In this document: positions 1 through 30,019 of the stretch, piece by piece
How positions within the stretch are numbered: position 1 is the first letter of the stretch
Layout of the letters: every line of letters begins with the position of its first letter
Assembly (NCBI GenBank): GCA_051294905.1
Contig: CM119373.1
Location: forward strand, 1-64,000
Source of the DNA: Botryllus schlosseri
Lineage: Eukaryota
Direction: 5' to 3'
Length of the DNA: 64,000 nt
Program-made: the position numbers and the translations under genes
The notes under the pieces: generated by a model
Databases searched by the model: none
What the model saw: only the letters and a program-made list of their open reading frames with translations
Told to the model about the DNA's origin: nothing

Positions 1-3000
1 TTCCGTCGATATCGCTCCCTGTCCGTGTCGGAGACCCGTAAAAGAGGTCTGTCCCTGTTGTAGGCCCTGCACCAGACAACCACAGCGAAATTCGGGACCT
101 CAAACAGTGTCACGGCCCCGTAATTGTCGGTCAAAATTCAAAAAATGGTCAAAAACCGTGTTTCGGCGGGTACTGCTCCGTCGATATCGCTCCCTGTCCG
201 TGTCGGAGACCCGTAAAAGAGGTCTGTCCCTGTTGTAGGGCCCTGCACCAGACAACCACAGCGAAATTCGGGACCTCAAACAGTGTCACGGCCCCGTAGT
301 TGTCGCGCAAAATTCAAAAAATGGTCAAAAACCGTGTTTCGGCGGGTACTGCTCCGTCGATATCGCTCCCTGTCCGTGTCGGAGACCCGTAAAAGAGGTC
401 TGTCCCTGTTGTAGGCCCTGCACCAGACAACCACAGCGAAATTCGGGACCTCAAACAGTGTCACGGCCCCGTAATTGTCGGTCAAAATTCAGAAAATGGT
501 CAAAAAACCGTGTTTCGGCGGGTACTGCTCCGTCGATATCGCTCCCTGTCCGTGTCGGAGACCCGCTAAAAGAGGTCTGTCCCTGTTGTAGGCCCTGCAC
601 CAGACAACCACAGCGAAATTCGGGACCTCAAACAGTGTCACGGCCCCGTAGTTGTCGCGCAAAATTCAAAAAATGGTCAAAAACCGTGTTTCGGCGGGTA
701 CTGCTCCGTCGATATCGCTCCCTGTCCGTGTCGGAGACCCGTAAAAGAGGTCTGTCCCTGTTGTAGGCCCTGCACCAGACAACCACAGCGAAATTCGGGA
801 CCTCAAACAGTGTCACGGCCCCGTAATTGTCGGTCAAAATTCAAAAAATGGTCAAAAACCGTGTTTCGGCGGGTACTGCTCCGTCGATATCGCTCCCTGT
901 CCGTGTCGGAGACCCGTAAAAGAGGTCTGTCCCTGTTGTAGGCCCTGCACCAGACAACCACAGCGAAATTCGGGACCTCAAACAGTGTCACGGCCCCGTA
1001 GTTGTCGCGCAAAATTCAAAAAATGGTCAAAAACCGTGTTTCGGCGGGTACTGCTCCGTCGATATCGCTCCCTGTCCGTGTCGGAGACCCGTAAAAGAGG
1101 TCTGTCCCTGTTGTAGGCCCTGCACCAGACAACCACAGCGAAATTCGGGACCTCAAACAGTGTCACGGCCCCGTAGTTGTCGCGCAAAATTCAAAAAATG
1201 GTCAAAAACCGTGTTTCGGCGGGTACTGCTCCGTCGATATCGCTCCCTGTCCGTGTCGGAGACCCGTAAAAGAGGTCTGTCCCTGTTGTAGGCCCTGCAC
1301 CAGACAACCACAGCGAAATTCAGGACCTCAAACAGTGTCACGGCCCCGTAGTTGTCGCGCAAAATTCAAAAAATGGTCAAAAACCGTGTTTCGGCGGGTA
1401 CTGCTCCGTCGATATCGCTCCCTGTCCGTGTCGGAGACCCGTAAAAGAGGTCTGTCCCTGTTGTAGGCCCTGCACCAGACAACCACAGCGAAATTCGGGA
1501 CCTCAAACAGTGTCACGGCCCCGTAGTTGTCGCGCAAAATTCAAAAAATTGGTCAAAAACCGTGTTTCGGCGGGTACTGCTCCGTCGATATCGCTCCCTG
1601 TCCGTGTCGGAGACCCGTAAAAGAGGTCTGTCCCTGTTGTAGGCCCTGCACCAGACAACCACAGCGAAATTCGGGACCTCAAACAGTGTCACGGCCCCGT
1701 AGTTGTCGCGCAAAATTCAAAAAATGGTCAAAAACCGTGTTTCGGCGGGTACTGCTCTGTCGATATCGCTCCCTGTCCGTGTCGGAGACCCGTAAAAGAG
1801 GTCTGTCCCTGTTGTAGGCCCTGCACCAGACAACCACAGCGAAATTCGGGACCTCAAACAGTGTCACGGCCCCGTAATTGTCGGTCAAAATTCAAAAAAT
1901 GGTCAAAAACCGTGTTTCGGGGGTACTGCTCCGTCGATATCGCTCCCTGTCCGTGTCGGAGACCCGTAAAAGAGGTCTGTCCCTGTTGTAGGCCCTGCAC
2001 CAGACAACCACAGCGAAATTCGGGACCTCAAACAGTGTCACGGCCCCGTAGTTGTCGCGCAAAATTCAAAAAATGGTCAAAAACCGTGTTTCGGCGGGTA
2101 CTGCTCCGTCGATATCGCTCCCTGTCCGTGTCGGAGACCCGTAAAAGAGGTCTGTCCCTGTTGTAGGCCCTGCACCAGACAACCACAGCGAAATTCGGGA
2201 CCTCAAACAGTGTCACGGCCCCGTAGTTGTCGCGCAAAATTCAAAAAATGGTCAAAAACCGTGTTTCGGCGGGTACTGCTCCGTCGATATCGCTCCCTGT
2301 CCGTGTCGGAGACCCGTAAAAGAGGTCTGTCCCTGTTGTAGGCCCTGCACCAGACAACCACAGCGAAATTCAGGACCTCAAACAGTGTCACGGCCCCGTA
2401 GTTGTCGCGCAAAATTCAAAAAATGGTCAAAAACCGTGTTTCGGCGGGTACTGCTCCGTCGATATCGCTCCCTGTCCGTGTCGGAGACCCGTAAAAGAGG
2501 TCTGTCCCTGTTGTAGGCCCTGCACCAGACAACCACAGCGAAATTCGGGACCTCAAACAGTGTCACGATCCCGTAATTGTCGGTCAAAATTCAAAAAAAT
2601 GGTCAAAAACCGTGTTTCGGCGGGTACTGCTCCGTCGATATCGCTCCCTGTCCGTGTCGGAGACCCGTAAAAGAGGTCTGTCCCTGTTGTAGGCCCTGCA
2701 CCAGACAACCACAGCGAAATTCGGGACCTCAAACAGTGTCACGGCCCCGTAATTGTCGGTCAAAATTCAAAAAATGGTCAAAAACCGTGTTTCGGCGGGT
2801 ACTGCTCCGTCGATATCGCTCCCTGTCCGTGTCGGAGACCCGTAAAAGAGGTCTGTCCCTGTTGTAGGCCCTGCACCAGACAACCACAGCGAAATTCAGG
2901 ACCTCAAACAGTGTCACGGCCCCGTAGTTGTCGCGCAAAATTCAAAAAATGGTCAAAAACCGTGTTTCGGCGGGTACTGCTCCGTCGATATCGCTCCCTG

Positions 3001-6000
3001 TCCGTGTCGGAGACCCGTAAAAGAGGTCTGTCCCTGTTGTAGGCCCTGCACCAGACAACCACAGCGAAATTCGGGACCTCAAACAGTGTCACGGCCCCGT
3101 AGTTGTCGCGCAAAATTCAAAAAATGGTCAAAAACCGTGTTTCGGCGGGTACTGCTCCGTCGATATCGCTCCCTGTCCGTGTCGGAGACCCGTAAAAGAG
3201 GTCTGTCCCTGTTGTAGGCCCTGCACCAGACAACCACAGCGAAATTCGGGACCTCAAACAGTGTCACGGCCCCGTAGTTGTCGCGCAAAATTCAAAAAAT
3301 GGTCAAAAACCGTGTTTCGGCGGGTACTGCTCCGTCGATATCGCTCCCTGTCCGTGTCGGAGACCCGTAAAAGAGGTCTGTCCCTGTTGTAGGCCCTGCA
3401 CCAGACAACCACAGCGAAATTCGGGACCTCAAACAGTGTCACGGCCCCGTAGTTGTCGCGCAAAATTCAAAAAATGGTCAAAAACCGTGTTTCGGCGGGT
3501 ACTGCTCCGTCGATATCGCTCCCTGTCCGTGTCGGAGACCCGTAAAAGAGGTCTGTCCCTGTTGTAGGCCCTGCACCAGACAACCACAGCGAAATTCGGG
3601 ACCTCAAACAGTGTCACGGCCCCGTAATTGTCGGTCAAAATTCAAAAAATGGTCAAAAACCGTGTTTCGGCGGGTACTGCTCCGTCGATATCGCTCCCTG
3701 TCCGTGTCGGAGACCCGTAAAAGAGGTCTGTCCCTGTTGTAGGCCCTGCACCAGACAACCACAGCGAAATTCAGGACCTCAAACAGTGTCACGGCCCCGT
3801 AGTTGTCGCGCAAAATTCAAAAAATGGTCAAAAACCGTGTTTCGGCGGGTACTGCTCCGTCGATATCGCTCCCTGTCCGTGTCGGAGACCCGTAAAAGAG
3901 GTCTGTCCCTGTTGTAGGCCCTGCACCAGACAACCACAGCGAAATTCGGGACCTCAAACAGTGTCACGGCCCCGTAGTTGTCGCGCAAAATTCAAAAAAT
4001 GGTCAAAAACCGTGTTTCGGCGGGTACTGCTCCGTCGATATCGCTCCCTGTCCGTGTCGGAGACCCGTAAAAGAGGTCTGTCCCTGTTGTAGGCCCTGCA
4101 CCAGACAACCACAGCGAAATTCGGGACCTCAAACAGTGTCACGGCCCCGTAGTTGTCGCGCAAAATTCAAAAAATGGTCAAAAACCGTGTTTCGGCGGGT
4201 ACTGCTCCGTCGATATCGCTCCCTGTCCGTGTCGGAGACCCGTAAAAGAGGTCTGTCCCTGTTGTAGGCCCTGCACCAGACAACCACAGCGAAATTCGGG
4301 ACCTCAAACAGTGTCACGGCCCCGTAGTTGTCGCGCAAAATTCAAAAAATGGTCAAAAACCGTGTTTCGGCGGGTACTGCTCCGTCGATATCGCTCCCTG
4401 TCCGTGTCGGAGACCCGTAAAAGAGGTCTGTCCCTGTTGTAGGCCCTGCACCAGACAACCACAGCGAAATTCGGGACCTCAAACAGTGTCACGGCCCCGT
4501 AGTTGTCGCGCAAAATTCAAAAAATGGTCAAAAACCGTGTTTCGGCGGGTACTGCTCCGTCGATATCGCTCCCTGTCCGTGTCGGAGACCCGTAAAAGAG
4601 GTCTGTCCCTGTTGTAGGCCCTGCACCAGACAACCACAGCGAAATTCGGGACCTCAAACAGTGTCACGGCCCCGTAGTTGTCGCGCAAAATTCAAAAAAT
4701 GGTCAAAAACCGTGTTTCGGCGGGTACTGCTCCGTCGATATCGCTCCCTGTCCGTGTCGGAGACCCGTAAAAGAGGTCTGTCCCTGTTGTAGGCCCTGCA
4801 CCAGACAACCACAGCGAAATTCGGGACCTCAAACAGTGTCACGGCCCCGTAATTGTCGGTCAAAATTCAAAAAATGGTCAAAAACCGTGTTTCGGCGGGT
4901 ACTGCTCCGTCGATATCGCTCCCTGTCCGTGTCGGAGACCCGTAAAAGAGGTCTGTCCCTGTTGTAGGCCCTGCACCAGACAACCACAGCGAAATTCAGG
5001 ACCTCAAACAGTGTCACGGCCCCGTAGTTGTCGCGCAAAATTCAAAAAATGGTCAAAAACCGTGTTTCGGCGGGTACTGCTCCGTCGATATCGCTCCCTG
5101 TCCGTGTCGGAGACCCGTAAAAGAGGTCTGTCCCTGTTGTAGGCCCTGCACCAGACAACCACAGCGAAATTCGGGACCTCAAACAGTGTCACGGCCCCGT
5201 AGTTGTCGCGCAAAATTCAAAAAATGGTCAAAAACCGTGTTTCGGCGGGTACTGCTCCGTCGATATCGCTCCCTGTCCGTGTCGGAGACCCGTAAAAGAG
5301 GTCTGTCCCTGTTGTAGGCCCTGCACCAGACAACCACAGCGAAATTCGGGACCTCAAACAGTGTCACGGCCCCGTAGTTGTCGCGCAAAATTCAAAAAAT
5401 GGTCAAAAACCGTGTTTCGGCGGGTACTGCTCCGTCGATATCGCTCCCTGTCCGTGTCGGAGACCCGTAAAAGAGGTCTGTCCCTGTTGTAGGCCCTGCA
5501 CCAGACAACCACAGCGAAATTCGGGACCTCAAACAGTGTCACGGCCCCGTAATTGTCGGTCAAAATTCAAAAAATGGTCAAAAACCGTGTTTCGGCGGGT
5601 ACTGCTCCGTCGATATCGCTCCCTGTCCGTGTCGGAGACCCGTAAAAGAGGTCTGTCCCTGTTGTAGGCCCTGCACCAGACAACCACAGCGAAATTCGGG
5701 ACCTCAAACAGTGTCACGGCCCCGTAGTTGTCGCGCAAAATTCAAAAAATGGTCAAAAACCGTGTTTCGGCGGGTACTGCTCCGTCGATATCGCTCCCTG
5801 TCCGTGTCGGAGACCCGTAAAAGAGGTCTGTCCCTGTTGTAGGCCCTGCACCAGACAACCACAGCGAAATTCGGGACCTCAAACAGTGTCACGGCCCCGT
5901 AGTTGTCGCGCAAAATTCAAAAAATGGTCAAAAACCGTGTTTCGGCGGGTACTGCTCCGTCGATATCGCTCCCTGTCCGTGTCGGAGACCCGTAAAAGTG

Positions 6001-9000
6001 GTCTGTCCCTGTTGTAGGCCCTACACCAGACAACCACAGCGAAATTCGGGACCTCAAACAGTGTCACGGCCCCGTAGTTGTCGCGCAAAATTCAAAAAAT
6101 GGTCAAAAACCGTGTTTCGGCGGGTACTGCTCCGTCGATATCGCTCCCTGTCCGTGTCGGAGACCCGTAAAAGAGGTCTGTCCCTGTTGTAGGCCCTGCA
6201 CCAGACAACCACAGCGAAATTCGGGACCTCAAACAGTGTCACGGCCCCGTAATTGTCGGTCAAAATTCAAAAAATGGTCAAAAACCGTGTTTCGGCGGGT
6301 ACTGCTCCGTCGATATCGCTCCCTGTCCGTGTCGGAGACCCGTAAAAGAGGTCTGTCCCTGTTGTAGGCCCTGCACCAGACAACCACAGCGAAATTCGGG
6401 ACCTCAAACAGTGTCACGGCCCCGTAGTTGTCGCGCAAAATTCAAAAAATGGTCAAAAACCGTGTTTCGGCGGGTACTGCTCCGTCGATATCGCTCCCTG
6501 TCCGTGTCGGAGACCCGTAAAAGAGGTCTGTCCCTGTTGTAGGCCCTGCACCAGACAACCACAGCGAAATTCGGGACCTCAAACAGTGTCACGGCCCCGT
6601 AATTGTCGGTCAAAATTCAAAAAATGGTCAAAAACCGTGTTTCGGCGGGTACTGCTCCGTCGATATCGCTCCCTGTCCGTGTCGGAGACCCGTAAAAGAG
6701 GTCTGTCCCTGTTGTAGGCCCTGCACCAGACAACCACAGCGAAATTCGGGACCTCAAACAGTGTCACGGCCACGTAGTTGTCGCGCAAAATTCAAAAAAT
6801 GGTCAAAAAACCGTGTTTCGGCGGGTACTGCTCCGTCGATATCGCTCCCTGTCCGTGTCGGAGACCCGTAAAAGAGTTCTGTCCCTGTCGTAGGCCCTGC
6901 ACCAGACAACCACAGCGAAATTCGGGACCTCAAACAGTGTCACGGCCCCGTAGTTGTCGCGCAAAATTCAAAAAATGGTCAAAAACCGTGTTTCGGCGGG
7001 TACTGCTCCGTCGATATCGCTCCCTGTCCGTGTCGGAGACCCGTAAAAGAGGTCTGTCCCTGTTGTAGGCCCTGCACCAGACAACCACAGCGAAATTCAG
7101 GACCTCAAACAGTGTCACGGCCCCGTAGTTGTCGCGCAAAATTCATAAAATGGTCAAAAACCGTGTTTCGGCGGGTACTGCTCCGTCGATATCGCTCCCT
7201 GTCCGTGTCGGAGACCCGTAAAAGAGGTCTGTCCCTGTTGTAGGCCCTGCACCAGACAACCACAGCGAAATTCGGGACCTCAAACAGTGTCACGGCCCCG
7301 TAATTGTCGGTCAAAATTCAAAAAATGGTCAAAAACCGTGTTTCGGCGGGTACTGCTCCGTCGATATCGCTCCCTGTCCGTGTCGGAGACCCGTAAAAGA
7401 GGTCTGTCCCTGTTGTAGGCCCTGCACCAGACAACCACAGCGAAATTCGGGACCTCAAACAGTGTCACGGCCCCGTAATTGTCGGTCAAAATTCAAAAAA
7501 TGGTCAAAAACCGTGTTTCGGCGGGTACTGCTATGTCGATATTGCTCCCTGTCCGTGTCGGAGACCCGTAAAAGAGGTCTGTCCCTGTTGTAGGCCCTGC
7601 ACCAGACAACCACAGCGAAATTCAGGACCTCAAACAGTGTCACGGCCCCGTAGTTGTCGCGCAAAATTCAAAAAATGGTCAAAAACCGTGTTTCGGCGGG
7701 TACTGCTCCGTCGATATCGCTCCCTGTCCGTGTCGGAGACCCGTAAAAGAGGTCTGTCCCTGTTGTAGGCCCTGCACCAGACAACCACAGCGAAATTCGG
7801 GACCTCAAACAGTGTCACGGCCCCGTAGTTGTCGCGCAAAATTCAAAAAATGGTCAAAAACCGTGTTTCGGCGGGTACTGCTCCGTCGATATCGCTCCCT
7901 GTCCGTGTCGGAGACCCGTAAAAGAGGTCTGTCCCTGTTGTAGGCCCTGCACCAGACAACCACAGCGAAATTCGGGACCTCAAACAGTGTCACGGCCCCG
8001 TAATTGTCGGTCAAAATTCAAAAAATGGTCAAAAACCGTGTTTCGGCGGGTACTGCTCCGTCGATATCGCTCCCTGTCCGTGTCGGAGACCCGTAAAAGA
8101 GGTCTGTCCCTGTTGTAGGCCCTGCACCAGACAACCACAGCGAAATTCGGGACCTCAAACAGTGTCACGGCCCCGTAGTTGTCGCGCAAAATTCAAAAAA
8201 TGGTCAAAAACCGTGTTTCGGCGGGTACTGCTCCGTCGATATCGCTCCCTGTCCGTGTCGGAGACCCGTAAAAGAGGTCTGTCCCTGTTGTAGGCCCTGC
8301 ACCAGACAACCACAGCGAAATTCGGGACCTCAAACAGTGTCACGGCCCCGTAGTTGTCGCGCAAAATTCAAAAAATGGTCAAAAACCGTGTTTCGGCGGG
8401 TACTGCTCCGTCGATATCGCTCCCTGTCCGTGTCGGAGACCCGTAAAAGTGGTCTGTCCCTGTTGTAGGCCCTGCACCAGACAACCACAGCGAAATTCGG
8501 GACCTCAAACAGTGTCACGCCCCGTAGTTGTCGCGCAAAATTCAAAAAATGGTCAAAAACCGTGTTTCGGCGGGTACTGCTCCGTCGATATCGCTCCCTG
8601 TCCGTGTCGGAGACCCGTAAAAGAGGTCTGTCCCTGTTGTAGGCCCTGCACCAGACAACCACAGCGAAATTCGGGACCTCAAACAGTGTCACGGCCCCGT
8701 AATTGTCGGTCAAAATTCAAAAAATGGTCAAAAACCGTGTTTCGGCGGGTACTGCTCCGTCGATATCGCTCCCTGTCCGTGTCGGAGACCCGTAAAAGAG
8801 GTCTGTCCCTGTTGTAGGCCCTGCACCAGACAACCACAGCGAAATTCGGGACCTCAAACAGTGTCACGGCCCCGTAGTTGTCGCGCAAAATTCAAAAAAT
8901 GGTCAAAAACCGTGTTTCGGCGGGTACTGCTCCGTCGATATCGCTCCCTGTCCGTGTCGGAGACCCGTAAAAGAGGTCTGTCCCTGTTGTAGGCCCTGCA

Positions 9001-12000
9001 CCAGACAACCACAGCGAAATTCGGGACCTCAAACAGTGTCACGGCCCCGTAATTGTCGGTCAAAATTCAAAAAATGGTCAAAAACCGTGTTTCGGCGGGT
9101 ACTGCTCCGTCGATATCGCTCCCTGTCCGTGTCGGAGACCCGTAAAAGAGGTCTGTCCCTGTTGTAGGCCCTGCACCAGACAACCACAGCGAAATTCGGG
9201 ACCTCAAACAGTGTCACGGCCACGTAGTTGTCGCGCAAAATTCAAAAAATGGTCAAAAACCGTGTTTCGGCGGGTACTGCTCCGTCGATATCGCTCCCTG
9301 TCCGTGTCGGAGACCCGTAAAAGAGTTCTGTCCCTGTCGTAGGCCCTGCACCAGACAACCACAGCGAAATTCGGGACCTCAAACAGTGTCACGGCCCCGT
9401 AGTTGTCGCGCAAAATTCAAAAAATGGTCAAAAACCGTGTTTCGGCGGGTACTGCTCCGTCGATATCGCTCCCTGTCCGTGTCGGAGACCCGTAAAAGAG
9501 GTCTGTCCCTGTTGTAGGCCCTGCACCAGACAACCACAGCGAAATTCAGGACCTCAAACAGTGTCACGGCCCCGTAGTTGTCGCGCAAAATTCATAAAAT
9601 GGTCAAAAACCGTGTTTCGGCGGGTACTGCTCCGTCGATATCGCTCCCTGTCCGTGTCGGAGACCCGTAAAAGAGGTCTGTCCCTGTTGTAGGCCCTGCA
9701 CCAGACAACCACAGCGAAATTCGGGACCTCAAACAGTGTCACGGCCCCGTAATTGTCGGTCAAAATTCAAAAAATGGTCAAAAACCGTGTTTCGGCGGGT
9801 ACTGCTCCGTCGATATCGCTCCCTGTCCGTGTCGGAGACCCGTAAAAGAGGTCTGTCCCTGTTGTAGGCCCTGCACCAGACAACCACAGCGAAATTCGGG
9901 ACCTCAAACAGTGTCACGGCCCCGTAATTGTCGGTCAAAATTCAAAAAATGGTCAAAAACCGTGTTTCGGCGGGTACTGCTATGTCGATATTGCTCCCTG
10001 TCCGTGTCGGAGACCCGTAAAAGAGGTCTGTCCCTGTTGTAGGCCCTGCACCAGACAACCACAGCGAAATTCAGGACCTCAAACAGTGTCACGGCCCCGT
10101 AGTTGTCGCGCAAAATTCAAAAAATGGTCAAAAACCGTGTTTCGGCGGGTACTGCTCCGTCGATATCGCTCCCTGTCCGTGTCGGAGACCCGTAAAAGAG
10201 GTCTGTCCCTGTTGTAGGCCCTGCACCAGACAACCACAGCGAAATTCGGGACCTCAAACAGTGTCACGGCCCCGTAGTTGTCGCGCAAAATTCAAAAAAT
10301 GGTCAAAAACCGTGTTTCGGCGGGTACTGCTCCGTCGATATCGCTCCCTGTCCGTGTCGGAGACCCGTAAAAGAGGTCTGTCCCTGTTGTAGGCCCTGCA
10401 CCAGACAACCACAGCGAAATTCGGGACCTCAAACAGTGTCACGGCCCCGTAGTTGTCGCGCAAAATTCAAAAAATGGTCAAAAACCGTGTTTCGGCGGGT
10501 ACTGCTCCGTCGATATCGCTCCCTGTCCGTGTCGGAGACCCGTAAAAGAGGTCTGTCCCTGTTGTAGGCCCTGCACCAGACAACCACAGCGAAATTCGGG
10601 ACCTCAAACAGTGTCACGGCCCCGTAATTGTCGCGCAAAATTCAAAAAATGGTCAAAAACCGTGTTTCGGCGGGTACTGCTCCGTCGATATCGCTCCCTG
10701 TCCGTGTCGGAGACCCGTAAAAGAGGTCTGTCCCTGTTGTAGGCCCTGCACCAGACAACCACAGCGAAATTCGGGACCTCAAACAGTGTCACGGCCACGT
10801 AGTTGTCGCGCAAAATTCAAAAAATGGTCAAAAACCGTGTTTCGGCGGGTACTGCTCCGTCGATATCGCTCCCTGTCCGTGTCGGAGACCCGTAAAAGAG
10901 TTCTGTCCCTGTCGTAGGCCCTGCACCAGACAACCACAGCGAAATTCGGGACCTCAAACAGTGTCACGGCCCCGTAGTTGTCGCGCAAAATTCAAAAAAT
11001 GGTCAAAAACCGTGTTTCGGCGGGTACTGCTCCGTCGATATCGCTCCCTGTCCGTGTCGGAGACCCGTAAAAGAGGTCTGTCCCTGTTGTAGGCCCTGCA
11101 CCAGACAACCACAGCGAAATTCAGGACCTCAAACAGTGTCACGGCCCCGTAGTTGTCGCGCAAAATTCAAAAAATGGTCAAAAACCGTGTTTCGGCGGGT
11201 ACTGCTCCGTCGATATCGCTCCCTGTCCGTGTCGGAGACCCGTAAAAGAGGTCTGTCCCTGTTGTAGGCCCTGCACCAGACAACCACAGCGAAATTCGGG
11301 ACCTCAAACAGTGTCACGGCCCCGTAATTGTCGGTCAAAATTCAAAAAATGGTCAAAAACCGTGTTTCGGCGGGTACTGCTCCGTCGATATCGCTCCCTG
11401 TCCGTGTCGGAGACCCGTAAAAGAGGTCTGTCCCTGTTGTAGGCCCTGCACCAGACAACCACAGCGAAATTCGGGACCTCAAACAGTGTCACGGCCCCGT
11501 AATTGTCGGTCAAAATTCAAAAAATGGTCAAAAACCGTGTTTCGGCGGGTACTGCTATGTCGATATTGCTCCCTGTCCGTGTCGGAGACCCGTAAAAGAG
11601 GTCTGTCCCTGTTGTAGGCCCTGCACCAGACAACCACAGCGAAATTCAGGACCTCAAACAGTGTCACGGCCCCGTAGTTGTCGCGCAAAATTCAAAAAAT
11701 GGTCAAAAACCGTGTTTCGGCGGGTACTGCTCCGTCGATATCGCTCCCTGTCCGTGTCGGAGACCCGTAAAAGAGGTCTGTCCCTGTTGTAGGCCCTGCA
11801 CCAGACAACCACAGCGAAATTCGGGACCTCAAACAGTGTCACGGCCCCGTAGTTGTCGCGCAAAATTCAAAAAATGGTCAAAAACCGTGTTTCGGCGGGT
11901 ACTGCTCCGTCGATATCGCTCCCTGTCCGTGTCGGAGACCCGTAAAAGAGGTCTGTCCCTGTTGTAGGCCCTGCACCAGACAACCACAGCGAAATTCGGG

Positions 12001-14346
12001 ACCTCAAACAGTGTCACGGCCCCGTAGTTGTCGCGCAAAATTCAAAAAATGGTCAAAAACCGTGTTTCGGCGGGTACTGCTCCGTCGATATCGCTCCCTG
12101 TCCGTGTCGGAGACCCGTAAAAGAGGTCTGTCCCTGTTGTAGGCCCTGCACCAGACAACCACAGCGAAATTCGGGACCTCAAACAGTGTCACGGCCCCGT
12201 AATTGTCGCGCAAAATTCAAAAAATGGTCAAAAACCGTGTTTCGGCGGGTACTGCTCCGTCGATATCGCTCCCTGTCCGTGTCGGAGACCCGTAAAAGAG
12301 GTCTGTCCCTGTTGTAGGCCCTGCACCAGACAACCACAGCGAAATTCGGGACCTCAAACAGTGTCACGGCCCCGTAATTGTCGGTCAAAATTCAAAAAAT
12401 GGTCAAAAACCGTGTTTCGGCGGGTACTGCTCCGTCGATATCGCTCCCTGTATGTGTCGGAGACCCGTAAAAGAGGTCTGTCCCTGTTGTAGGCCCTGCA
12501 CCAGACAACCACAGCGAAATTCGGGACCTCAAACAGTGTCACGGCCCCGTAGTTGTCGCGCAAAATTCAAAAAATGGTCAAAAACCGTGTTTCGGCGGGT
12601 ACTGCTCCGTCGATATCGCTCCCTGTCCGTGTCGGAGACCCGTAAAAGAGGTCTGTCCCTGTTGTAGGCCCTGCACCAGACAACCACAGCGAAATTCGGG
12701 ACCTCAAACAGTGTCACGGCCCCGTAGTTGTCGCGCAAAATTCAAAAAATGGTCAAAAACCGTGTTTCGGCGGGTACTGCTCCGTCGATATCGCTCCCTG
12801 TCCGTGTCGGAGACCCGTAAAAGAGGTCTGTCCCTGTTGTAGGCCCTGCACCAGACAACCACAGCGAAATTCGGGACCTCAAACAGTGTCACGGCCCCGT
12901 AATTGTCGGTCAAAATTCAAAAAATGGTCAAAAACCGTGTTTCGGCGGGTACTGCTCCGTCGATATCGCTCCCTGTCCGTGTCGGAGACCCGTAAAAGAG
13001 GTCTGTCCCTGTTGTAGGCCCTGCACCAGACAACCACAGCGAAATTCAGGACCTCAAACAGTGTCACGGCCCCGTAGTTGTCGCGCAAAATTCAAAAAAT
13101 GGTCAAAAACCGTGTTTCGGCGGGTACTGCTCCGTCGATATCGCTCCCTGTCCGTGTCGGAGACCCGTAAAAGAGGTCTGTCCCTGTTGTAGGCCCTGCA
13201 CCAGACAACCACAGCGAAATTCGGGACCTCAAACAGTGTCACGGCCCCGTAGTTGTCGCGCAAAATTCAAAAAATGGTCAAAAACCGTGTTTCGGCGGGT
13301 ACTGCTCCGTCGATATCGCTCCCTGTCCGTGTCGGAGACCCGTAAAAGAGGTCTGTCCCTGTTGTAGGCCCTGCACCAGACAACCACAGCGAAATTCGGG
13401 ACCTCAAACAGTGTCACGGCCCCGTAATTGTCGGTCAAAATTCAAAAAATGGTCAAAAACCGTGTTTCGGCGGGTACTGCTCCGTCGATATCGCTCCCTG
13501 TCCGTGTCGGAGACCCGTAAAAGAGGTCTGTCCCTGTTGTAGGCCCTGCACCAGACAACCACAGCGAAATTCGGGACCTCAAACAGTGTCACGGCCCCGT
13601 AGTTGTCGCGCAAAATTCAAAAAATGGTCAAAAACCGTGTTTCGGCGGGTACTGCTCCGTCGATATCGCTCCCTGTCCGTGTCGGAGACCCGTAAAAGAG
13701 GTCTGTCCCTGTTGTAGGCCCTGCACCAGACAACCACAGCGAAATTCGGGACCTCAAACAGTGTCACGGCCCCGTAGTTGTCGCGCAAAATTCAAAAAAT
13801 GGTCAAAAACCGTGTTTCGGCGGGTACTGCTCCGTCGATATCGCTCCCTGTCCGTGTCGGAGACCCGTAAAAGAGGTCTGTCCCTGTTGTAGGCCCTGCA
13901 CCAGACAACCACAGCGAAATTCGGGACCTCAAACAGTGTCACGGCCCCGTAATTGTCGGTCAAAATTCAAAAAATGGTCAAAAACCGTGTTTCGGCGGGT
14001 ACTGCTCCGTCGATATCGCTCCCTGTCCGTGTCGGAGACCCGTAAAAGAGGTCTGTCCCTGTTGTAGGCCCTGCACCAGACAACCACAGCGAAATTCGGG
14101 ACCTCAAACAGTGTCACGGCCCCGTAGTTGTCGCGCAAAATTCAAAAAATGGTCAAAAACCGTGTTTCGGCGGGTACTGCTCCGTCGATATCGCTCCCTG
14201 TCCGTGTCGGAGACCCGTAAAAGAGGTCTGTCCCTGTTGTAGGCCCTGCACCAGACAACCACAGCGAAATTCGGGACCTCAAACAGTGTCACGGCCCCGT
14301 AATTGTCGGTCAAAATTCAAAAAATGGTCAAAAACCGTGTTTCGGC
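1..14346. repeat. 175-bp tandem satellite array, about 82 near-identical units, continuing off the left edge
   Basis: Unit (..gtttcggcgggtactgctccgtcgatatcgctccctgtccgtgtcggagacccgtaaaagagg..) recurs every 175 bp, with occasional 174/176-bp steps from 1-bp indels. Two main variants: gtagttgtcgcgc and gtaattgtcggtc. The last unit switches to the diverged variant at ~14347. Confidence 0.99.
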
Positions 14347-14513
14347 GCGTACTGCTCCGTCGATATAGCAAGTAGTACGTGTACGAGACCCGTAAAAGAG
14401 GTTTGCGCGTCTTGTAGGCCTAGCACACGACAACTGCAGCGAGATTTAGGACCTTAAACAGTGTCAACAACCGCCCAAAATGAATAAAAATCGTCAAAAA
14501 ACGTGTTTCGGCG

Positions 14514-14800
14514 GGCCCCAGACCGATTTTCGAGAAAAAAAATTTCGGGCATTCTATGACGTAATAATGACCCGGGAATCTCTTTTTTCAGAAAATTCTC
14601 GCCGCGCGCTCATATGCTATTGAACTGTCGCGTTAGAAGGACGTTTGGAGTGGATTACCGTGCATCAAGAACATTTATTGGAATCTCAAGTCACCGGGTG
14701 AGTGAAAATTTCTTCTAGTTGTGAAATCCACATACTTTAGCGTGGCGCGATTAGGCAAAATAGCTTTTCCCGAGTCCAAAATCGTTGGATTTTGGGCCAT
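14514..14800 (+). repeat. ~280-bp internal block of the element; other copies at ~15823-16110, 20535-20795, 21865-22125, 22864-23150 and 24173-24460
   Basis: Shared sequence cagaccgattttcg..atgacgt(a/g)ataatgacccg..ctcgccgcgcgctcatatgct..ggaatctcaagtc..gggtgagtgaaaat..ccgagtccaaaa. Confidence 0.9.
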
Positions 14801-14859
14801 AACTAGTCCCCGTAACTCGTCTCTATCTCAGCGCCTGTAACTTCGATTTGGTCAATTTC

Positions 14860-15700
14860 TTTTTTATTGCATTCGTCTCTCGGCGCCAATTCGATCGCGG
14901 GGTCGTTTTTTCGTCTGCTGCATACACGAGCCCAGATATTGGACGAAACGTCCCGAAAAAAATCCCTATACTTAACACGGCGCGATTTTGCGGAAGTCCA
15001 ACTTCCCATAAGAATGTATGGACCGGTTTTCGTGCCGTATCTACTCTCTGGGACGGCCCAGAATGACGAACGACGCACCGACGTGTTGGTATTCGCGCCC
15101 CGGTCACATCGGTGTGCGGCTCGACGATGTCCGACCTGAGGGAGGACCGCTATCGGCCTCTAAAGTAGCCTTTGATCAGCCGTGACGTCACAGTCGGCGG
15201 AAATCCCATAAGGAATGCCTGGTACGGTTTTCGGCCATTATCTCCTCTCTGGTACGGCCCAGAATGACGAACGACACATCTCTGTGTTCCTAAGCGGGCG
15301 CTGGTCACGTCGATGTGCGGCTCGATGGGTGTGGGTCACGTGTGGCGGCGCTAGAGAGTCGCGAATATCGGATTTCTGAGGGGGTTACAGGCCCGTAGCG
15401 TTCCTCCCCGAGCACTGACATGCACGAACGACCCATCGTTGCGTTCTGCTCCTCGAGGCGGTCATTCGAACACCAAATTCGACATCGTGGGCTCTCGTGG
15501 GGGGTCGCCAGAGCCCCCCCCCATTTTACTTCAACCGGGAATATGTCAGCTCCGGTACATCCGATTCTGGAAATTTCTTTTTCCGCGCATTCTTCTCTTG
15601 GCGCCAATTCGATCGCGGGGTCGTTTGTGTGTCTGCTACATACACGAGCCAAGCTTTTAGACGAAACGTCCCGAAAAAATCCCTATACTTTAACATGGGG
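14860..15700 (+). repeat. CpG-rich, internally duplicated region upstream of the recombinase gene
   Basis: ggcgccaattcgatcgcggggtcg..gacgaaacgtcccgaaaaaatccctatact occurs at ~14880-14972 and ~15600-15690. cccataag..ggcccagaatgacgaacgac occurs at ~15005-15075 and ~15205-15275. Same layout in copy 2 at +8350. Confidence 0.8.
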
Positions 15701-15988
15701 CCGGAGGTCGAAAAAAGTTGAAGTCTTTGACCAATTTATTTTCGTTCTAAACCGCCTACGCGTGTTCCTAAGACTCTCTAGAGACGCGTGGTGAAGAAAA
15801 TATCACGATCCCTCAACTTTTCCGGGCCCCAGACCGATTTTCGGGAAAAAAAATTTCGGGCCCTCTATGACGTAATAATGACCCGAGAATATCTTTTTCC
15901 AGATAATTCTCGCCGCGCGCTCATATGCTAGTGAACTGTCGCGTTAGGAGGACGTTTGGAGAGTATTACCGTGCATCAAGAACATATA

Positions 15989-18597
15989 ATGGAATCTCAA
16001 GTCGTCGGGTGAGTGAAAATGTCTTCTAATTTCGAAATCCCTATGCTTTAGCGTGGCGCGATTCGGCGAAATAGCTTTTACCGAGTCCAAAATCGCTGGT
16101 TTTCGGTCGATAACTCTCTCTGCTCCGGTAACTTCAACATGGCGCGATTTTTAATATTTCTATTGTAGCGATCCCGTTGCAATTCGACCCACGAAAAGAA
16201 TCAGACTCGACAGGTGTCAAGTTTGCCATATACAAACCAAAGGTCATAGAACGAGGCATCTTCGTAACGTTCATAAGTGGTCCGTGGACAGAATTAAAGA
16301 GTAAGATCGCCGTTGGCTTATTTATAACAAGCAGAAGCAAATAAATATTACGTGTCGCAGGTCTGCTCGCTACTTGCGCGAGCCCAGGCAAGACATAAAG
16401 CGATGTCGTCCACGGTCTTGGTGTGGTCTCTGCTCTAGATCAGTAGCCACGGCATATATAGCAACCCACTGGAGGATTATTCATTCCGATAAAATACGCG
16501 ACGGCTTCGGGATAGGTTGCGAGACCTACCAGGAAAACTTTAAAAAGTTGACCTTCGAGTCCGACTTTTCAAGCGTGAGTAACTCTGATGGTAATGTGTC
16601 ACTTTTTTACCGAAATAATGCAAATCCGTTTATTACAGCTACTCTCCCTGTACGAAAGGCATCGTCAAGTGCAAGCGCTCGACGAAGCCAACACCAAAAT
16701 GGTCGTCAGCAAACTGAAATCAGTTTTCAAGAAGTTTGTGGTTGACGAGCCGGAGCAATTAGTCACGTACATTTGTAACGCCGACGGGAAACTGTCCGCG
16801 AGCACTATTTTCAACACCCTGACGTCGCTAAAGGGATTTCTTGAATTTGCGCGCATGCAGCATCCGGCATTGTTGGAAAAAGTGGTTTCACCGGACAACC
16901 AACTGAGAGCCCTACAAATCATCGCGACGTACTCTAGAGCGACCAATAAAAGAAGAAAGCGGCAGCACGAGAAACGTTTGTCTGTCGACATGGACATCAT
17001 CAATAAAAATTGGCCGAATATCAAAAGGTTCGTGCTAAGATTAAAATATCGCCCAGTTTCAAGTTTATTATGCGTGTTTTTTTAGAATGATCAAAAGCGA
17101 AACGTTTAAAAGAGACCTCCATCAACCGTTAACAGACGAAAACGTCCGGGATTGTTTGGCGGCGACAATAATTCAAGTTGGTCTCTCGAGCGGCACGAGA
17201 TTATCATATTTCCGTAGAGTGACCGGATACGAGCTTAGCCACGCCGTCCGTTCCGTGAACGATCCCGAAATGTTAGTCATACAGGTGAACCACAACAAGT
17301 GCCTGTCGAGTCAGGGTTTGTTGGTTATGACGCAAAAAGACTATGACCGATTCAAACACGTAGGTGTTACGAAGATATGAACGTGTAATGGAGCGGTCTA
17401 AAACCTCTTTTCGATTTCAGATTTGCAAGCAAACCAATCCAGACTTGGATTTGTCACGGGAAGAAGTCGCGTTGCGAAACTCGAACGGCAAGCCGTTCCA
17501 AAATTTATCGGTTTGTGTCGTGGAATACCTCAGTACCCACGAAGTCAGCCTGACGTACCAGCACCTCCGTAAAATAGTCGCCACGATGGCGAGTTCGCTA
17601 GACGACATTGGACGATATCATGTTGCGATGTCATCGTCGCACAGCACGGAGGTCGCGAGTCGACACTATGACGGGATAGGCAGGACCAAGAGGGCGGCTG
17701 CCGGGGCGATTCTATGCAGAGAAATGCTCCGCAAAGCCGTGAACAGTACACACGATGACTTATATGCGGAGTTGGCCGCGTCAAAAGCTCCCCCAAATGA
17801 AGGTATGTAAAGCCCTATAAAATTATAACGTCATATATCTGACCGCAACTGTTTATTAAGGATCATTTGAATCACCGAACCCAACCCCGACCACAGTTCA
17901 ACCTGAGCTGCCAACAAAGGACGATATCACTAATGATACGCAATCAAACGGAGCTAATTCGGAAACTCTATTCGCTACGGACCGGGACACACGGATCGTC
18001 AGACCGACCCCAACCCCGACCACAGTTCAACCAGAGCTGCAAACAGAGGACGATAGCACTTTTCACTCCGAAAATGATACCCAATCAAACGGAGCTAATT
18101 CGGAAACTCTATTCGCTACGGACCGGGACACACGGATCGTCAGACCGACCCCAACCCCGAACACAGTTCAACCAGAGCTGCAAACAGAGGACGATAGCAC
18201 TTTTCACTCCGAAAATGATACCCAATCAAACGGAGCTAATTCGGAAACTCTATTCGCTACGGACCGGGACACACGGATCGTCACAAATGATGGTAATCTA
18301 TTTGCTATTACCGTCCAAATTCCATTTCTAATCATATTCAAACCCGCAGATATTGACGTCGAGGAAATAGCGAACACGATATGCAACCGTCAGAGAGGGA
18401 CCAAGACCACGTTGACGAACGAGCTAGTGGAGAAATTGATCAAAGACTCTCGATTGCATGCGTTTCATCACGATCGTGGACCTCTACTGAGCAGGATAGT
18501 TCACGAATATAAATCCGAATGCTATTTAACCTTTCAGCAAATGCGTTCAAAAATGAGATTGATCAAGTCGGTTTTAAAGACAAATAAACCTGGATGA
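15989..18597 (+). CDS. Spliced tyrosine recombinase (phage-integrase fold, Crypton-like) with two N-terminal C2H2-like zinc fingers; ~696 aa, reading frame intact
   Basis: Hand-built exons: 15989-16008, 16169-16300, 16361-16574, 16639-17027, 17086-17359, 17421-17802, 17861-18292, 18350-18597 (2091 nt, all GT-AG, phases compatible, no internal stop). Motifs: CQVC..HLRNVH and CGLC..HWRIIH fingers; LSASTIFNTLTSLKGFLEF core-binding helix; SSGTR (Arg 17198); VNHNK (Lys 17297); YQHLRK (Arg 17568); VAMSSSHSTEVASRHY (His 17640, Tyr 17667). Exon 1 is the least certain. Confidence 0.85.
17877..18282 (+). repeat. 141-bp coding minisatellite (~3 units) giving a 47-aa Pro/Thr/acidic repeat in exon 7
   Basis: agaccgaccccaacc recurs at 18001 and 18142. 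Translates as RPTPTPTTVQPELQTEDDSTFHSENDTQSNGANSETLFATDRDTRIV. Confidence 0.95.
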
Positions 18598-18796
18598 ACG
18601 GAGTTTTGTTCTTTGACTCTTGATTTTGATCCCCAAAATCGTGAGAACGAACGTGGCGCCTACCATGATACGCCTAAGCCCCTTTCACAATGTCGAGAAC
18701 GCGACGGACGTAAACTCAATACGAAATTTATGTCCGGCTCCACAACCTCACGATGACGGGCATGGATGATGAGATCCCGGACACGTTTTAACGCAA

Positions 18797-18814
18797 AATA
18801 AAGGCGCCAATAAA
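18797..18814 (+). promoter_or_regulatory. Paired AATAAA polyadenylation signals at the extreme right end of the element (also present in copy 2)
   Basis: AATAAA at 18797-18802 and 18809-18814, about 200 nt after the stop codon and 2 nt before the telomeric tract. Confidence 0.55.
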
Positions 18815-18816
18815 GT

Positions 18817-18879
18817 CCCTAACCCTAACCCTAACCCTAACCCTAACCCTAACCCTAACCCTAACCCTAACCCTAACCC
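18817..18879 (+). repeat. Perfect telomeric tract (CCCTAA)10 CCC between the two element copies
   Basis: Read directly: ccctaa x10 at 18817-18876, then ccc. Confidence 0.98.
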
Positions 18880-19131
18880 CACGAGTCCGTCGGTGTGCGG
18901 GAAATCGAAATCGGAGAAAAAAAATTTTCGACCTAGTCGGATTTTTTCATAAGTTTGAAATCCCCATACTTTAACACGGGGCCGAGATCGTAAAAAAGTT
19001 GAAGTCCGAAAAAAATTTTTTTCACCTAAAAACCACACGGGCGCGTTCCCCGCACTGTTTGAAGACGCCCCGCAAAGGAATTATCCCGATCCGACAAACG
19101 GATCGGCCTCCAGAGCCGGTCAAAGTTCCGA

Positions 19132-21814
19132 TTTCGGCGGGTACTGCTCCGTCGATATCGCTCCCTGTCCGTGTCGGAGACCCGTAAAAGAGGTCTGTCC
19201 CTGTTGTAGGCCCTGCACCAGACAACCACAGCGAAATTCAGGACCTCAAACAGTGTCACGGCCCCGTAATTGTCGGTCAAAATTCAAAAAATGGTCAAAA
19301 ACCGTGTTTCGGCGGGTACTGCTCCGTCGATATCGCTCCCTGTCCGTGTCGGAGACCCGTAAAAGAGGTCTGTCCCTGTTGTAGGCCCTGCACCAGACAA
19401 CCACAGCGAAATTCAGGACCTCAAACAGTGTCACGGCCCCGTAATTGTCGGTCAAAATTCAAAAAATGGTCAAAAACCGTGTTTCGGCGGGTACTGCTCC
19501 GTCGATATCGCTCCCTGTCCGTTTCGGAGACCCGTAAAAGAGGTCTGTCCCTGTTGTAGGCCCTGCACCAGACAACCACAGCGAAATTCAGGACCTCAAA
19601 CAGTGTCACGGCCCCGTAATTGTCGGTCAAAATTCAAAAAATGGTCAAAAACCGTGTTTCGGCGGGTACTGCTCCGTCGATATCGCTCCCTGTCCGTGTC
19701 GGAGACCCGTAAAAGAGGTCTGTCCCTGTTGTAGGCCCTGCACCAGACAACCACAGCGAAATTCAGGACCTCAAACAGTGTCACGGCCCCGTAATTGTCG
19801 GTCAAAATTCAAAAAATGGTCAAAAACCGTGTTTCGGCGGGTACTGCTCCGTCGATATCGCTCCCTGTCCGTGTCGGAGACCCGTAAAAGAGGTCTGTCC
19901 CTGTTGTAGGCCCTGCACCAGACAACCACAGCGAAATTCAGGACCTCAAACAGTGTCACGGCCCCGTAATTGTCGGTCAAAATTCAAAAAATGGTCAAAA
20001 ACGGTGTTTCGGCGGGTACTGCTCCGTCGATATCGCTCTCTGTCCGTGTCGGAGACCCGTAAAAGAGGTCTGTACCTGTTGTAGGCCCTGCACCAGACAA
20101 CCACAGCGAAATTCAGGACCTCAAACAGTGTCACGGCCCCGTAATTGTCGGTCAAAATTCAAAAAATGGTCAAAAACCGTGTTTCGGCGGGTACTGCTCC
20201 GTCGATATCGCTCCCTGTCCGTGTCGGAGACCCGTAAAAGAGGTCTGTCCCTGTTGTAGGCCCTGCACCAGACAACCACAGCGAAATTCAGGACCTCAAA
20301 CAGTGTCACGGCCCCGTAATTGTCGGTCAAAATTCAAAAAATGGTCAAAAACCGTGTTTCGGCGGGTACTGCTCCGTCGATATCGCTCCCTGTCCGTGTC
20401 GGAGACCCGTAAAAGAGGTCTGTCTCTGTTGTAGGCCCTGCACCAGACAACCACAGCGAGATTTAGGACCTTAAACAGTGTCACGGCTCCGCAATGTCGG
20501 TCAAAAACCCAAAAAAATTCAAAAAAATCGGCACAGACCGATTTTCGAGAAAAAAATTTTCGGGCCCTCTATGACGTGATAATGACCCGGGAATATCTTT
20601 TTTCAGAAAATTCTCGCCGCGCGCTCATATGCTATTGAACTGTCGCGTTGGGAGGACGTTGTGAGAGGATTACCGTGCATCAGGAACATTTATTGGAATC
20701 TCAAGTCACCGGGTGAGTGAAAATTTCTTCTAGTTGTGAAATCCACATACTTTAGCGTGGCGCGATTAGGCGAAATAGCTTTTACCGAGTCCAAAACCGT
20801 GTTTCGGCGCGTACTGCTCCGTCGATATAGCAAGTAGTACGTGTCCGAGACCCGTAAAAGAGGTTTGCGCGTCTTGTAGGCCTAGCACACGACATCCACA
20901 GCGAGATTCAGACCTTAAACAATGTCACGGCTCCGCAATAATCGGTCAAAAACCGCCCAAAATGCAAAAAAATCGTCCAAAACCGTGTTTCGGCGCGTAC
21001 TGCTCCGTCGATATAGCAAGTAGTACGTGTCCGAGACCCGTAAAAGAGGTTTGCGCGTCTTGTACGCCTAGCACACGACATCCACAGCGAGATTCAGACC
21101 TTAAACAGTGTCACGGCCCCGTAATTGTCGGTCAAAATTCAAAAAATGGTCAAAAACCGTGTTTCGGCGGGTACTGCTCCGTCGATATCGCTCCCTGTCC
21201 GTGTCGGAGACCCGTAAAAGAGGTCTGTACCTGTTGTAGGCCCTGCACCAGACAACCACAGCGAAATTAAGGACCTCAAACAGTGTCACGGCCCCGTAAT
21301 TGTCGGTCAAAATTCAAAAAATGGTCAAAAACCGTGTTTCGGCGGGTACTGCTCCGTCGATATCGCTCCCTGTCCGTGTCGGAGACCCGTAAAAGAGGTC
21401 TGTCCCTGTTGTAGGCCCTGCACCAGACAACCACAGCGAAATTCAGGACCTCAAACAGTGTCACGGCCCCGTAATTGTCGGTCAAAATTCAAAAAATGGT
21501 CAAAAACCGTGTTTCGGCGGGTACTGCTCCGTCGATATCGCTCCCTGTCCGTGTCGGAGACCCGTAAAAGAGGTCTGTCCCTGTTGTAGGCCCTGCACCA
21601 GACAACCACAGCGAAATTCAGGACCTCAAATAGTGTCACGGCCCCGTAATTGTCGGTCAAAATTCAAAAAATGGTCAAAAACCGTGTTTCGGCGGGTACT
21701 GCTCCGTCGATATCGCTCCCTGTCCGTGTCGGAGACCCGTAAAAGAGGTCTGTCTCTGTTGTAGGCCCTGCACCAGACAACCACAGCGAGATTTAGGACC
21801 TTAAACAGTGTCAC
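19132..21814. repeat. Short 175-bp satellite arrays inside copy 2 (~19132-20484 and ~21103-21814), interrupted by the 280-bp block and 186-bp variant units
   Basis: Same monomer as 1-14346, nearly all of the aattcagg + gtaattgtcggtc type. Confidence 0.95.
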
Positions 21815-22121
21815 GGCTCCGCAATGTCGGTCAAAAACCCAAAAAAATTCAAAAAAATCGGCACAGACCGATTTTCGAGAAAAATATTTTCGGGCCCTCT
21901 ATGACGTGATAATGACCCGGGAATATCTTTTTTCAGAAAATTCTCGCCGCGCGCTCATATGCTATTGAACTGTCGCGTTGGGAGGACGTTGTGAGAGGAT
22001 TACCGTGCATCAGGAACATTTATTGGAATCTCAAGTCACCGGGTGAGTGAAAATTTCTTCTAGTTGTGAAATGCACATACTTTAGCGTGGCGCGATTAGG
22101 CGAAATAGCTTTTACCGAGTC

Positions 22122-22864
22122 CAAAACCGTGTTTCGGCGCGTACTGCTCCGTCGATATAGGAAGTAGTACGTGTCCGAGACCCGTAAAAGAGGTTTGCGC
22201 GTCTTGTAGGCCTAGCACACGACATCCACAGCGAGATTCAGACCTTAAACAGTGTCACGGCTCCGCAATAATCGGTCAAAAACCGCCCAAAATGCAAAAA
22301 AATCGTCCAAAACCGTGTTTCGGCGCGTACTGCTCCGTCGATATAGCAAGTAGTACGTGTCCGAGACCCGTAAAAGAGGTTTGCGCGTCTTGTAGGCCTA
22401 GCACACGACATCCGCAGCGAGATTCAGACCTTAAACAGTGTCACGGCTCCGCAATAATCGGTCAAAAACCGCCCAAAATGCAAAAAAATCGTCCAAAACC
22501 GTGTTTCGGCGCGTACTGCTCCGTCGATATAGCAAGTAGTACGTGTCCGAGACCCGTAAAAGAGGTTTGCGCGACTTGTAGGCCTAGCACACGACATCCA
22601 CAGCGAGATTCAGACCTTAAACAGTGTCACGGCTCCGCAATAATCGGTCAAAAACCACCAAAAATGCAAAAAAATCGTCAAAAACCGTGTTTCGGCGCGT
22701 ACTGCTCCGTCGATATAGCAAGTAGTACGTGTACGAGACCCGTAAAAGAGGTTTGCGCGTCTTGTAGGCCTAGCACACGACAACTGCAGCGAGATTTAGG
22801 ACCTTAAACAGTGTCAACAACCGCCCAAAATGAATAAAAATCGTCAAAAAACGTGTTTCGGCGG
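22122..22864. repeat. Diverged 186-bp satellite variant, ~4 units (also ~20792-21102 and ~14347-14513)
   Basis: gtttcggcgcgtactgctccgtcgatatag(c/g)aagtagtacg recurs at 22131, 22317 and 22503. The ORF track shows the matching 62-aa period. Confidence 0.92.
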
Positions 22865-29344: not shown

Positions 29345-29392
29345 TTAAACTATTCGCCGATTCAACTACATTTATATCTTTAGTATGAGAAG

Positions 29393-29892: not shown

Positions 29893-30019
29893 AGAAAGTC
29901 ATTACATTATGAGAAGTCTCAAATAAGCATTTCTAGCTGAAGTTGGTCATGTGCTCTGGATTCGCACATGAGCATTTAGCAATATCATTTAAAGCTAACA
30001 TATTGTTTTAATTCCAGGC

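Follow-up and report, generated by a model that had tools for sequence, protein, structure and literature searches.

The first 64,000 nucleotides of contig CM119373.1 of Botryllus schlosseri (NCBI GenBank assembly GCA_051294905.1, forward strand), referred to below as the window, contain a long array of a 175-bp satellite and two head-to-tail copies of a DNA element whose single gene is predicted to encode a tyrosine recombinase (YR). The order along the window is the array (Array 1), copy 1 of the element, a (CCCTAA)10.5 telomeric tract, copy 2, the short sequence CCCTAACC and then unique DNA. The same satellite leads into copy 1 as a long array and is present inside copy 2 as a few short blocks, and we consider here how these states are related. 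An origin of the satellite in the element is likely. The overall reading that we prefer, and hold to be probable, is that of an element-internal repeat which was expanded by ordinary recombination at a chromosome end and which plays no part in a centromere.

Satellite array and element anatomy

The features of the locus, with their coordinates in the window and their strand, are the following.

1..14339 (+), Array 1: 81 complete 175-bp units and a 160-bp partial unit, open at the left edge of the window
14327..14874 (+), 548-bp block identical to copy 2 (22677-23224), a putative conversion or crossover tract
14340..14505 (+), terminal 186-type unit of Array 1, single and shortened to 166 bp
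14512..14804 (+), distal module M of copy 1, without ATG
15823..16115 (+), gene-proximal module M of copy 1, holding the predicted first exon (15989-16008) and its donor site
15989..18597 (+), predicted 8-exon gene of 696 aa with GT-AG introns, open in copy 1
17875..18283 (+), 141-bp coding tandem repeat of copy 1, with 3 unit starts versus 5 in copy 2 (26225-26927)
18817..18879 (+), (CCCTAA)10.5 telomeric tract at the boundary of copies 1 and 2 (Tandem Repeats Finder)
18880..19131 (+), left end and leader of copy 2
19132..20525 (+), satellite block 1 of copy 2: 8 units of the 175 type, the last with a 186-like tail
20534..20800 (+), internal module M1 of copy 2, no ATG
20802..21855 (+), satellite block 2 of copy 2: one 186 unit, one 186/175 hybrid and four 175-type units
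21864..22130 (+), internal module M2 of copy 2, no ATG
22132..22855 (+), satellite block 3 of copy 2: three 186-bp units and a terminal shortened unit
22862..23154 (+), module M3 of copy 2, identical to the distal M of copy 1 over the 256 bp compared
24339..27240 (+), gene of copy 2, with the exon plan of copy 1 and one premature stop at codon 88
27460..27467 (+), CCCTAACC, an 8-bp remnant at the right end of copy 2, followed by unrelated DNA

Copy 2 (18880-27467) is complete, and copy 1 lies only partly in the window. From left to right, copy 2 opens with a 252-bp leader, after which come three satellite blocks (8, 6 and 4 units), each followed by a module M; about 1 kb of non-coding DNA then leads to a fourth M, and the gene, a tail and CCCTAACC complete the copy before the unrelated DNA. 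Its 18 monomers, which sit between the leader and the distal M and start and end on one common 10-bp word, form three blocks split by two copies of the ~290-bp M; 12 of them are of the 175 type and 6 are, in the 5' part of the unit, of the 186 type, one 186/175 hybrid included. Tandem Repeats Finder places the 175-bp blocks at 19132-20506 and 20958-21836 and the 186-bp block at 22119-22816. Sequence of the element has no match within 27468-64000.

Module M is probably a duplicate of the 5' region of the gene, because the predicted first exon lies in M and an ATG is found in only 2 of the 6 copies, both gene-proximal. The satellite is interleaved with start-less copies of this region (M at 14512, 20534, 21864 and 22862). 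The leader is itself related to the DNA upstream of the gene, its segment 18958-19114 being a 68% paralogue of 24027-24183, which runs straight into the gene-proximal M. A motif of ~22 bp recurs at 15677, 18958, 23310, 24027 and 24385, in the leader, M and the non-coding modules; as a sequence it is a candidate binding site for the zinc fingers of the element.

In Array 1, Tandem Repeats Finder detects 82.6 copies of the 175-bp unit at 2-14466. Counting of monomer starts by an anchor gives 100 in total, 82 before position 14400 and 18 in copy 2; the 82 comprise 81 full 175-type units followed by the terminal 186-type unit, with the 160-bp partial unit preceding them all. The window starts inside the array, and 82 is for this reason a minimum. 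Neither of the internal M modules is present in Array 1, and of the six 186-type units it keeps only the terminal one. The switch from the 175 to the 186 type falls within a core common to both (~14327-14347), copy 1 matches copy 2 from 14327 on, and both copies stop at the identical base before CCCTAA. Open reading frames (ORFs) within the satellite arise from the repeat itself and were not taken for genes.

Much of an earlier reading of this DNA, made from the sequence alone, is borne out by these counts. Its placing of the satellite about 250 bp inside the left end of copy 2 is accurate (19132, 252 bp after the telomeric tract), as are its figure of at least 82 units in the long array and its equation of 14347-14513 with 22697-22863, which match exactly at an offset of 8350. 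Its figure of about 12 units for copy 2 holds for the 175 type alone, the total being 18 monomers. That adjacent copies vary in unit number is correct (18 versus at least 82), but they differ also in modules, 186-type units and haplotype. The satellite indeed lies inside the element in copy 2, between leader and M; the assertion that the 82-unit array occupies the same position in copy 1 stands as regards the identical exit through the last 186-type unit, but not for the other side, since the left end, leader and any telomeric tract of copy 1 are beyond the window.

The two monomer types are 77% alike (144 of 187 aligned columns), and within Array 1 and copy 2 the mean pairwise identity is 98.7% and 99.2%, respectively, against 97.7% between them. 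The clustered A-tracts that the sequence-only reading had remarked upon are real: a monomer holds 6 A/T tracts, three of them within ~25 bp, while 2000 dinucleotide shuffles averaged 2.8 (p=0.0045). A 10-bp periodicity of AA/TT is also present (p=0.0015 against letter shuffles, which overstate the significance). The GC content of the monomer is 53%, versus ~40% in the flank. A derivation of the monomer from the leader, M or the other non-coding parts was not found in any of the listed pairs on either strand; pairwise similarity exceeds z=3 only for leader/M/non-coding pairs and for the 175/186 pair, and homology of the monomer to other parts of the element is confined to the 10-bp junction word. 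A search with a monomer motif found no relatives in metagenome or viral contigs, and Rfam gave 0 matches across 13900-30000.

The predicted recombinase gene and its telomeric setting

The introns of the gene model measure 57-64 bp, with the exception of the first (160 bp). In the predicted protein, two C2H2-type fingers are accompanied by a region of weak SAM-like character, by repeats of 47 aa and, at the C-terminus, by a helical part; the tyrosine-recombinase motifs present are R288, H391xxR, H and Y (Y427 region). The ratio of nonsynonymous to synonymous change (pN/pS) is 0.44 over 470 codons, a weak figure derived from 20 and 13 changes. ORFs of at least 100 aa in the complete copy 2 are exclusively satellite frames, YR exons or non-coding overlaps, and Pfam scans of the exons gave no reverse transcriptase (RT) or DDE family.

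Few relatives of this protein were found. In the two known, P0001 and P0002 (80% and 44%), the HxxR, H and Y positions are invariant. Neighbours of exon 6 in the ESM Atlas include eukaryote clusters without a name (0.98) as well as, at 0.93, Phage_integrase and telomere-resolvase clusters, the Phage_integrase annotation in the latter being carried by 37% of members. Exon 6 matched none of the longer proteins, a search with alignment A1 gave no match, and no protein relatives were found in metagenome or viral contigs; the search of the PDB by sequence gave 1 chance-level match and that of PHROGs nothing below E=0.02. The predicted fold of exon 6 is a low-confidence model (mean pLDDT 51.7), too weak to count for or against the YR assignment; neither Foldseek nor VIA-align found a clear match for it (best Z 5.7). 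The C-terminal 81 aa (18352-18594) bear a weak likeness to helix-turn-helix (HTH) clusters (0.91, low recognition), with HTH_Tnp_Tc5 on 18% of one cluster, a lead that falls short of a Myb domain. More diverged subfamilies are present in the public sequencing runs X7 and X8 (~90-95% alike in DNA over 16167-17718) and in the proteins P0001 and P0002 (80% and 44%), and because of these the family would seem to be old and diverse.

Crypton genes possess introns. Cryptons have been described as elements that encode only a YR, that lack terminal inverted repeats (TIRs) and that have short terminal direct repeats of 4-6 bp (PMC3212892); CryptonV is listed as a group (PMC5753468), some of whose families insert in microsatellites (PMC8869645). 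The present element resembles them in having one YR gene with R-H-R-Y tetrad motifs, no RT or DDE gene seen in the complete copy 2, no inverted match between the ends of copy 2 in a self-comparison, no long terminal repeats (LTRs), a short direct repeat, CCCTAACC, at both ends of copy 2 and a putative target in a simple repeat. It differs in that this target would be the telomeric hexamer, with the copies arranged head-to-tail, and in possessing two N-terminal C2H2-type fingers, the 47-aa repeats and a multi-kb internal satellite. Protein searches outside Repbase found no named Crypton homologue (groups A, F, I, S, V). On its sequence features, the element thus appears Crypton-like and closest in habit to CryptonV.

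Three ends of the two copies are visible at this single locus and all three adjoin CCCTAA. The 8-bp CCCTAACC that flanks copy 2 on both sides is part of the telomeric tract. The CCCTAA between the copies and the remnant before the unique DNA would fit a left chromosome end, and the orientation of the hexamer, with the remnant at 27460, would fit two insertions at the proximal edge of a left telomere. The junction of right end and left end at 18817-18879 is expected equally from a circle junction and from a tandem insertion. No convincing lox-like symmetrical arms were recognized at the element ends or around a CCCTAA core.

The flank is without CpG depletion (observed/expected 1.08 in 30001-64000) and the element has an excess (1.41 in 14512-18816); for this reason DNA methylation may serve poorly as a marker in this DNA. 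A 182-bp inverted repeat (90%), which lies about 1.1 kb beyond the right end of the element, surrounds a degenerate CCTAA run (28587-29348) in the manner of a miniature inverted-repeat transposable element or foldback. Farther into the flank, exons for a kinase and for Ribonuc_2-5A, IRE1/RNase L-like, lie on the minus strand at 47571-48186 and a second kinase ORF at 55842-56696 (-); the kinase search gave 9 unnamed matches.

Recombination footprints and competing explanations

The clearest trace of exchange is the 548-bp block at the junction of Array 1 and copy 1, which begins in the core common to the 175 and 186 types. It contains no difference from copy 2, versus 64 differences in the next 3,061 bp (~2%), a contrast with a Poisson p of ~8e-4 at the non-coding rate. 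The allele of the block at 14580 is absent from the contigs of runs X1, X7 and X8, and at seven listed sites in the gene these runs mostly have the allele of copy 2 and not that of copy 1. The comparison concerns public-run contigs, which drop rare variants, over positions 14115-18000 and among the rows listed. Since the alleles are rare or absent in three runs, the identity would be local and recent, and family-wide conservation is disfavoured as its cause.

Comparable traces occur elsewhere. Between segments 20357-20987 and 21687-22317 there are 4 differences in 631 positions, from which copy 2 would appear to hold a recent duplication of 1,330 bp. It contains 186/175 hybrid units as well, with a mirror image of the Array 1 junction at 20988. 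Within Array 1, blocks of rare variants are repeated at spacings of 14 and 9 units (positions 6816/9265/10840 and 7516/9965/11540), inter-unit distance is lowest at an offset of 14, and the longest repeated run of labels is 9 (in shuffles the mean was 5.2, the 95th percentile 7 and the maximum 10). Indels are commoner in the first 15 units (6/15 versus 5/64, Fisher p=0.005, the 5/64 including three 350-bp segments that are missed anchors and not indels), a pattern to be anticipated where a contig ends in thin coverage. All of the recombination footprints could be explained by unequal exchange, conversion and break-induced replication (BIR) at a chromosome end, by analogy with yeast Y' arrays (PMC4222662); the YR would be required, if at all, only for placing the element in CCCTAA.

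Other public runs place the link between satellite and element in a wider context. Junctions from M to monomer occur in X1 (3 contigs at 16092, with a joint from 16076 to 14152) and in X8 (14785), and because they recur the link is not peculiar to this locus. One X8 contig leaves the YR gene at 17660 and goes on into a stretch that resembles the leader, with 2 mismatches over 29 bp as judged by eye; this suggests that head-to-tail copies, with deletions between them, may exist in another labelled organism too. When the contig depth summed across the 175-type bin is set against the median depth of the gene, the monomer:gene ratio is 9.4 in X1, 3.6 in X7 and 6.2 in X8. Such a ratio is no measure of copy number, and highly repetitive pieces may have been filtered out. 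These values are closer to the 12:1 of copy 2 than to 80:1 and would suit elements with between a handful and a dozen units, a weak hint that short arrays are typical.

Two properties are expected of a transposon-derived satellite. The monomer is a constitutive part of the element, as the anatomy of copy 2 and the X1 and X8 junctions indicate, and a long homogenised array of the same monomer exists (at least 14.3 kb, in one array only). The direction from element to array is favoured by the old 175 and 186 types among the modules together with the low depth ratios. In the history that we propose, the 175/186-bp repeat would be a native internal tandem repeat of a Crypton-like YR element, copies of which were stacked head-to-tail in the telomeric tract of what is presumably the left chromosome end. 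The likely task of the YR would be excision and integration at CCCTAA. The length of the arrays would have been altered not by this enzyme but by host recombination between misaligned monomers, neighbouring copies or other ends, with unequal exchange, gene conversion and BIR as plausible routes. In the distal copy, an exchange in the common core of the 175 and 186 types would have brought a long 175-type array, with an evolution of its own, directly up to the last 186 unit. What resulted would be a subtelomeric satellite block, derived from the element and no shorter than 14.3 kb, without a centromere role. If this history is correct, an element left end beyond Array 1 is somewhat to be favoured over its absence.

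Several observations weigh against this history. The left end of copy 1 and the end of the chromosome are outside the window. A four-site haplotype that is present in all 10 full-length 175-bp units of copy 2 occurs in none of the 73 indel-free units of Array 1 (8 indel-bearing units were left out of the scoring), and because of this a recent common origin of the two arrays is not supported by the haplotypes. Pfam has no match above its cut-off (the best is Phage_int_SAM_1, E=0.05), and the only 2 protein relatives among 1.8 billion representatives are the single Logan proteins P0001 and P0002. The bulk RNA run X24 contributed 8 reads from ~6% of the run, none of them spliced, which leaves exon model and expression unconfirmed, and the gene of copy 2 has its premature stop. 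Array 1 as a simple amplification of the units of copy 2 was rejected, on the haplotype (0/73) and on the missing internal modules. Its units show a majority haplotype of their own and both reciprocal mixtures of this with the copy-2 haplotype; on this pattern Array 1 would thus be a sister array with a history of exchange.

The haplotypes bear equally on the idea that the satellite came first, as a free-standing subtelomeric family of which the element captured a few units, Array 1 being a block of the host joined to copy 1 by one-sided recombination. Such an order of events would suit the distinct haplotype pool of Array 1, its lack of the internal modules and the absence of homology between the monomer and the rest of the element beyond the junction word; one-sided hybrids of element and array, possibly produced by recombination with standalone arrays, are also described in oyster (PMC8268682). 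We nonetheless judge it rather unlikely, for the low monomer:gene depth in three runs does not suggest a large free pool, and the old split between the 175 and 186 types, with hybrids interleaved among the modules, points to long residence in the element. The suggestion that the element is a passive subtelomeric repeat similar to yeast Y', spread solely by recombination through internal telomeric tracts and carrying the YR gene as a passenger or relic, departs from our preferred history only in how the element moves and leaves that of the satellite the same. Its tandem copies and short telomeric tract do resemble Y' arrays, which are moved by recombination and BIR (PMC4222662), and the few RNA reads, the broken gene of copy 2 and the lack of symmetrical arms around a CCCTAA core are in keeping with it. 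Against this stand the open 696-aa frame of copy 1 with all of its catalytic positions, the pN/pS value (weak as it is), the one same base at which both copies end before CCCTAA and the motifs kept by relatives at 80% and 44%; we consider this passive mode improbable.

The sequence-only reading had raised the possibility that arrays such as this one are centromeres of telocentric chromosomes, and Array 1 would then be the edge of a centromeric satellite. Its unit is nucleosome-sized, with the A-tract excess and AA/TT periodicity given above, and the array is highly homogeneous, has incipient higher-order blocks and is open-ended; the Drosophila Y centromere also offers a precedent, its 18HT satellite having come from telomeric HeT-A/TART (PMC9659126). 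But size and A-tracts of this kind are generic, the unit is GC-rich (53%), the depth ratios reach only 9.4, 3.6 and 6.2, the array lies, by the orientation of CCCTAA, nearer the telomere than either copy, and only ~13 kb of element separates it from unique DNA with kinase genes from ~47.6 kb. Of all the explanations this seems to us the least credible. Hardly more probable is an assembly artefact, in which the array was wrongly connected with copy 1 or consensus cross-talk between the two copies produced the 548-bp identity: the window starts in the array with an excess of indels, the identical block begins exactly at the junction, and none of the examined public-run contig pieces spans it, but the junction is clean and lies in the core common to both types, a mirror-image natural hybrid exists at 20988 in copy 2, the units near the junction are free of indels and the order of variants is structured.

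Counterparts among satellites and telomeric elements

That satellites can arise from internal repeats of mobile elements is already established for Helitrons, LTR elements, foldbacks and the telomeric retrotransposons of Drosophila. Examples are the central tandem repeats of Helitron/DINE elements, Cg170/HindIII of the oyster, PisTR-A of Ogre and TIR-220 of Tetris (PMC8268682, PMC9659126). Oyster Helitrons hold about six monomers on average and one-sided arrays occur among them (PMC8268682). The B. schlosseri element shares with these the short internal arrays of nucleosome-sized units and the occasional long or one-sided array, and differs in that the carrier is a YR element in telomeric repeats. 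A possible link to Cryptons exists in CgiSat40, an oyster satellite of 673 bp with Repbase similarity to a Crypton, although such similarity to non-Helitron elements is described there as fragmentary (PMC8268682); in the text of a satellite review the words 'Crypton' and 'tyrosine' have 0 occurrences (PMC9659126).

At chromosome ends, a parallel is found in HeT-A/TART with 18HT, where likewise telomere-associated elements lie head-to-tail and a non-coding part gave rise to a satellite (PMC9659126). Those are, however, non-LTR retrotransposons that replace telomerase, whereas here the canonical CCCTAA is kept and the enzyme is a YR. The Y' element of yeast encodes a helicase and has short internal repeats. 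As at the present locus, Y' forms tandem gene-bearing units with short telomeric tracts between them (64 bp in one case versus 63 bp here), and these are moved and amplified by recombination (PMC4222662). In contrast, Y' has no YR and no multi-kb satellite.

A more far-reaching version of events, which we think unlikely, would have an active YR DNA transposon target (TTAGGG)n in an animal with ordinary telomeres and carry a satellite seed to each end that it colonises, thereby building the subtelomeric blocks of the genome. Expansion would be by recombination or by rolling-circle amplification of excised circles, the latter of which would also account for the head-to-tail stacking. If true, HeT-A/TART and Y' would have a counterpart among DNA transposons in this element, whose internal repeat may be bound by its own zinc fingers, and if the targeting is real the element would provide a eukaryotic recombinase that acts on TTAGGG. 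No description of a telomere-embedded YR element with a satellite was found in the open-access literature, with Repbase Reports outside that scope, nor any relevant ascidian paper. The locus holds the seed state of 18 units and the expanded state of at least 82 side by side, with dated recombination footprints, and the birth of a subtelomeric satellite could for this reason be followed in long reads.

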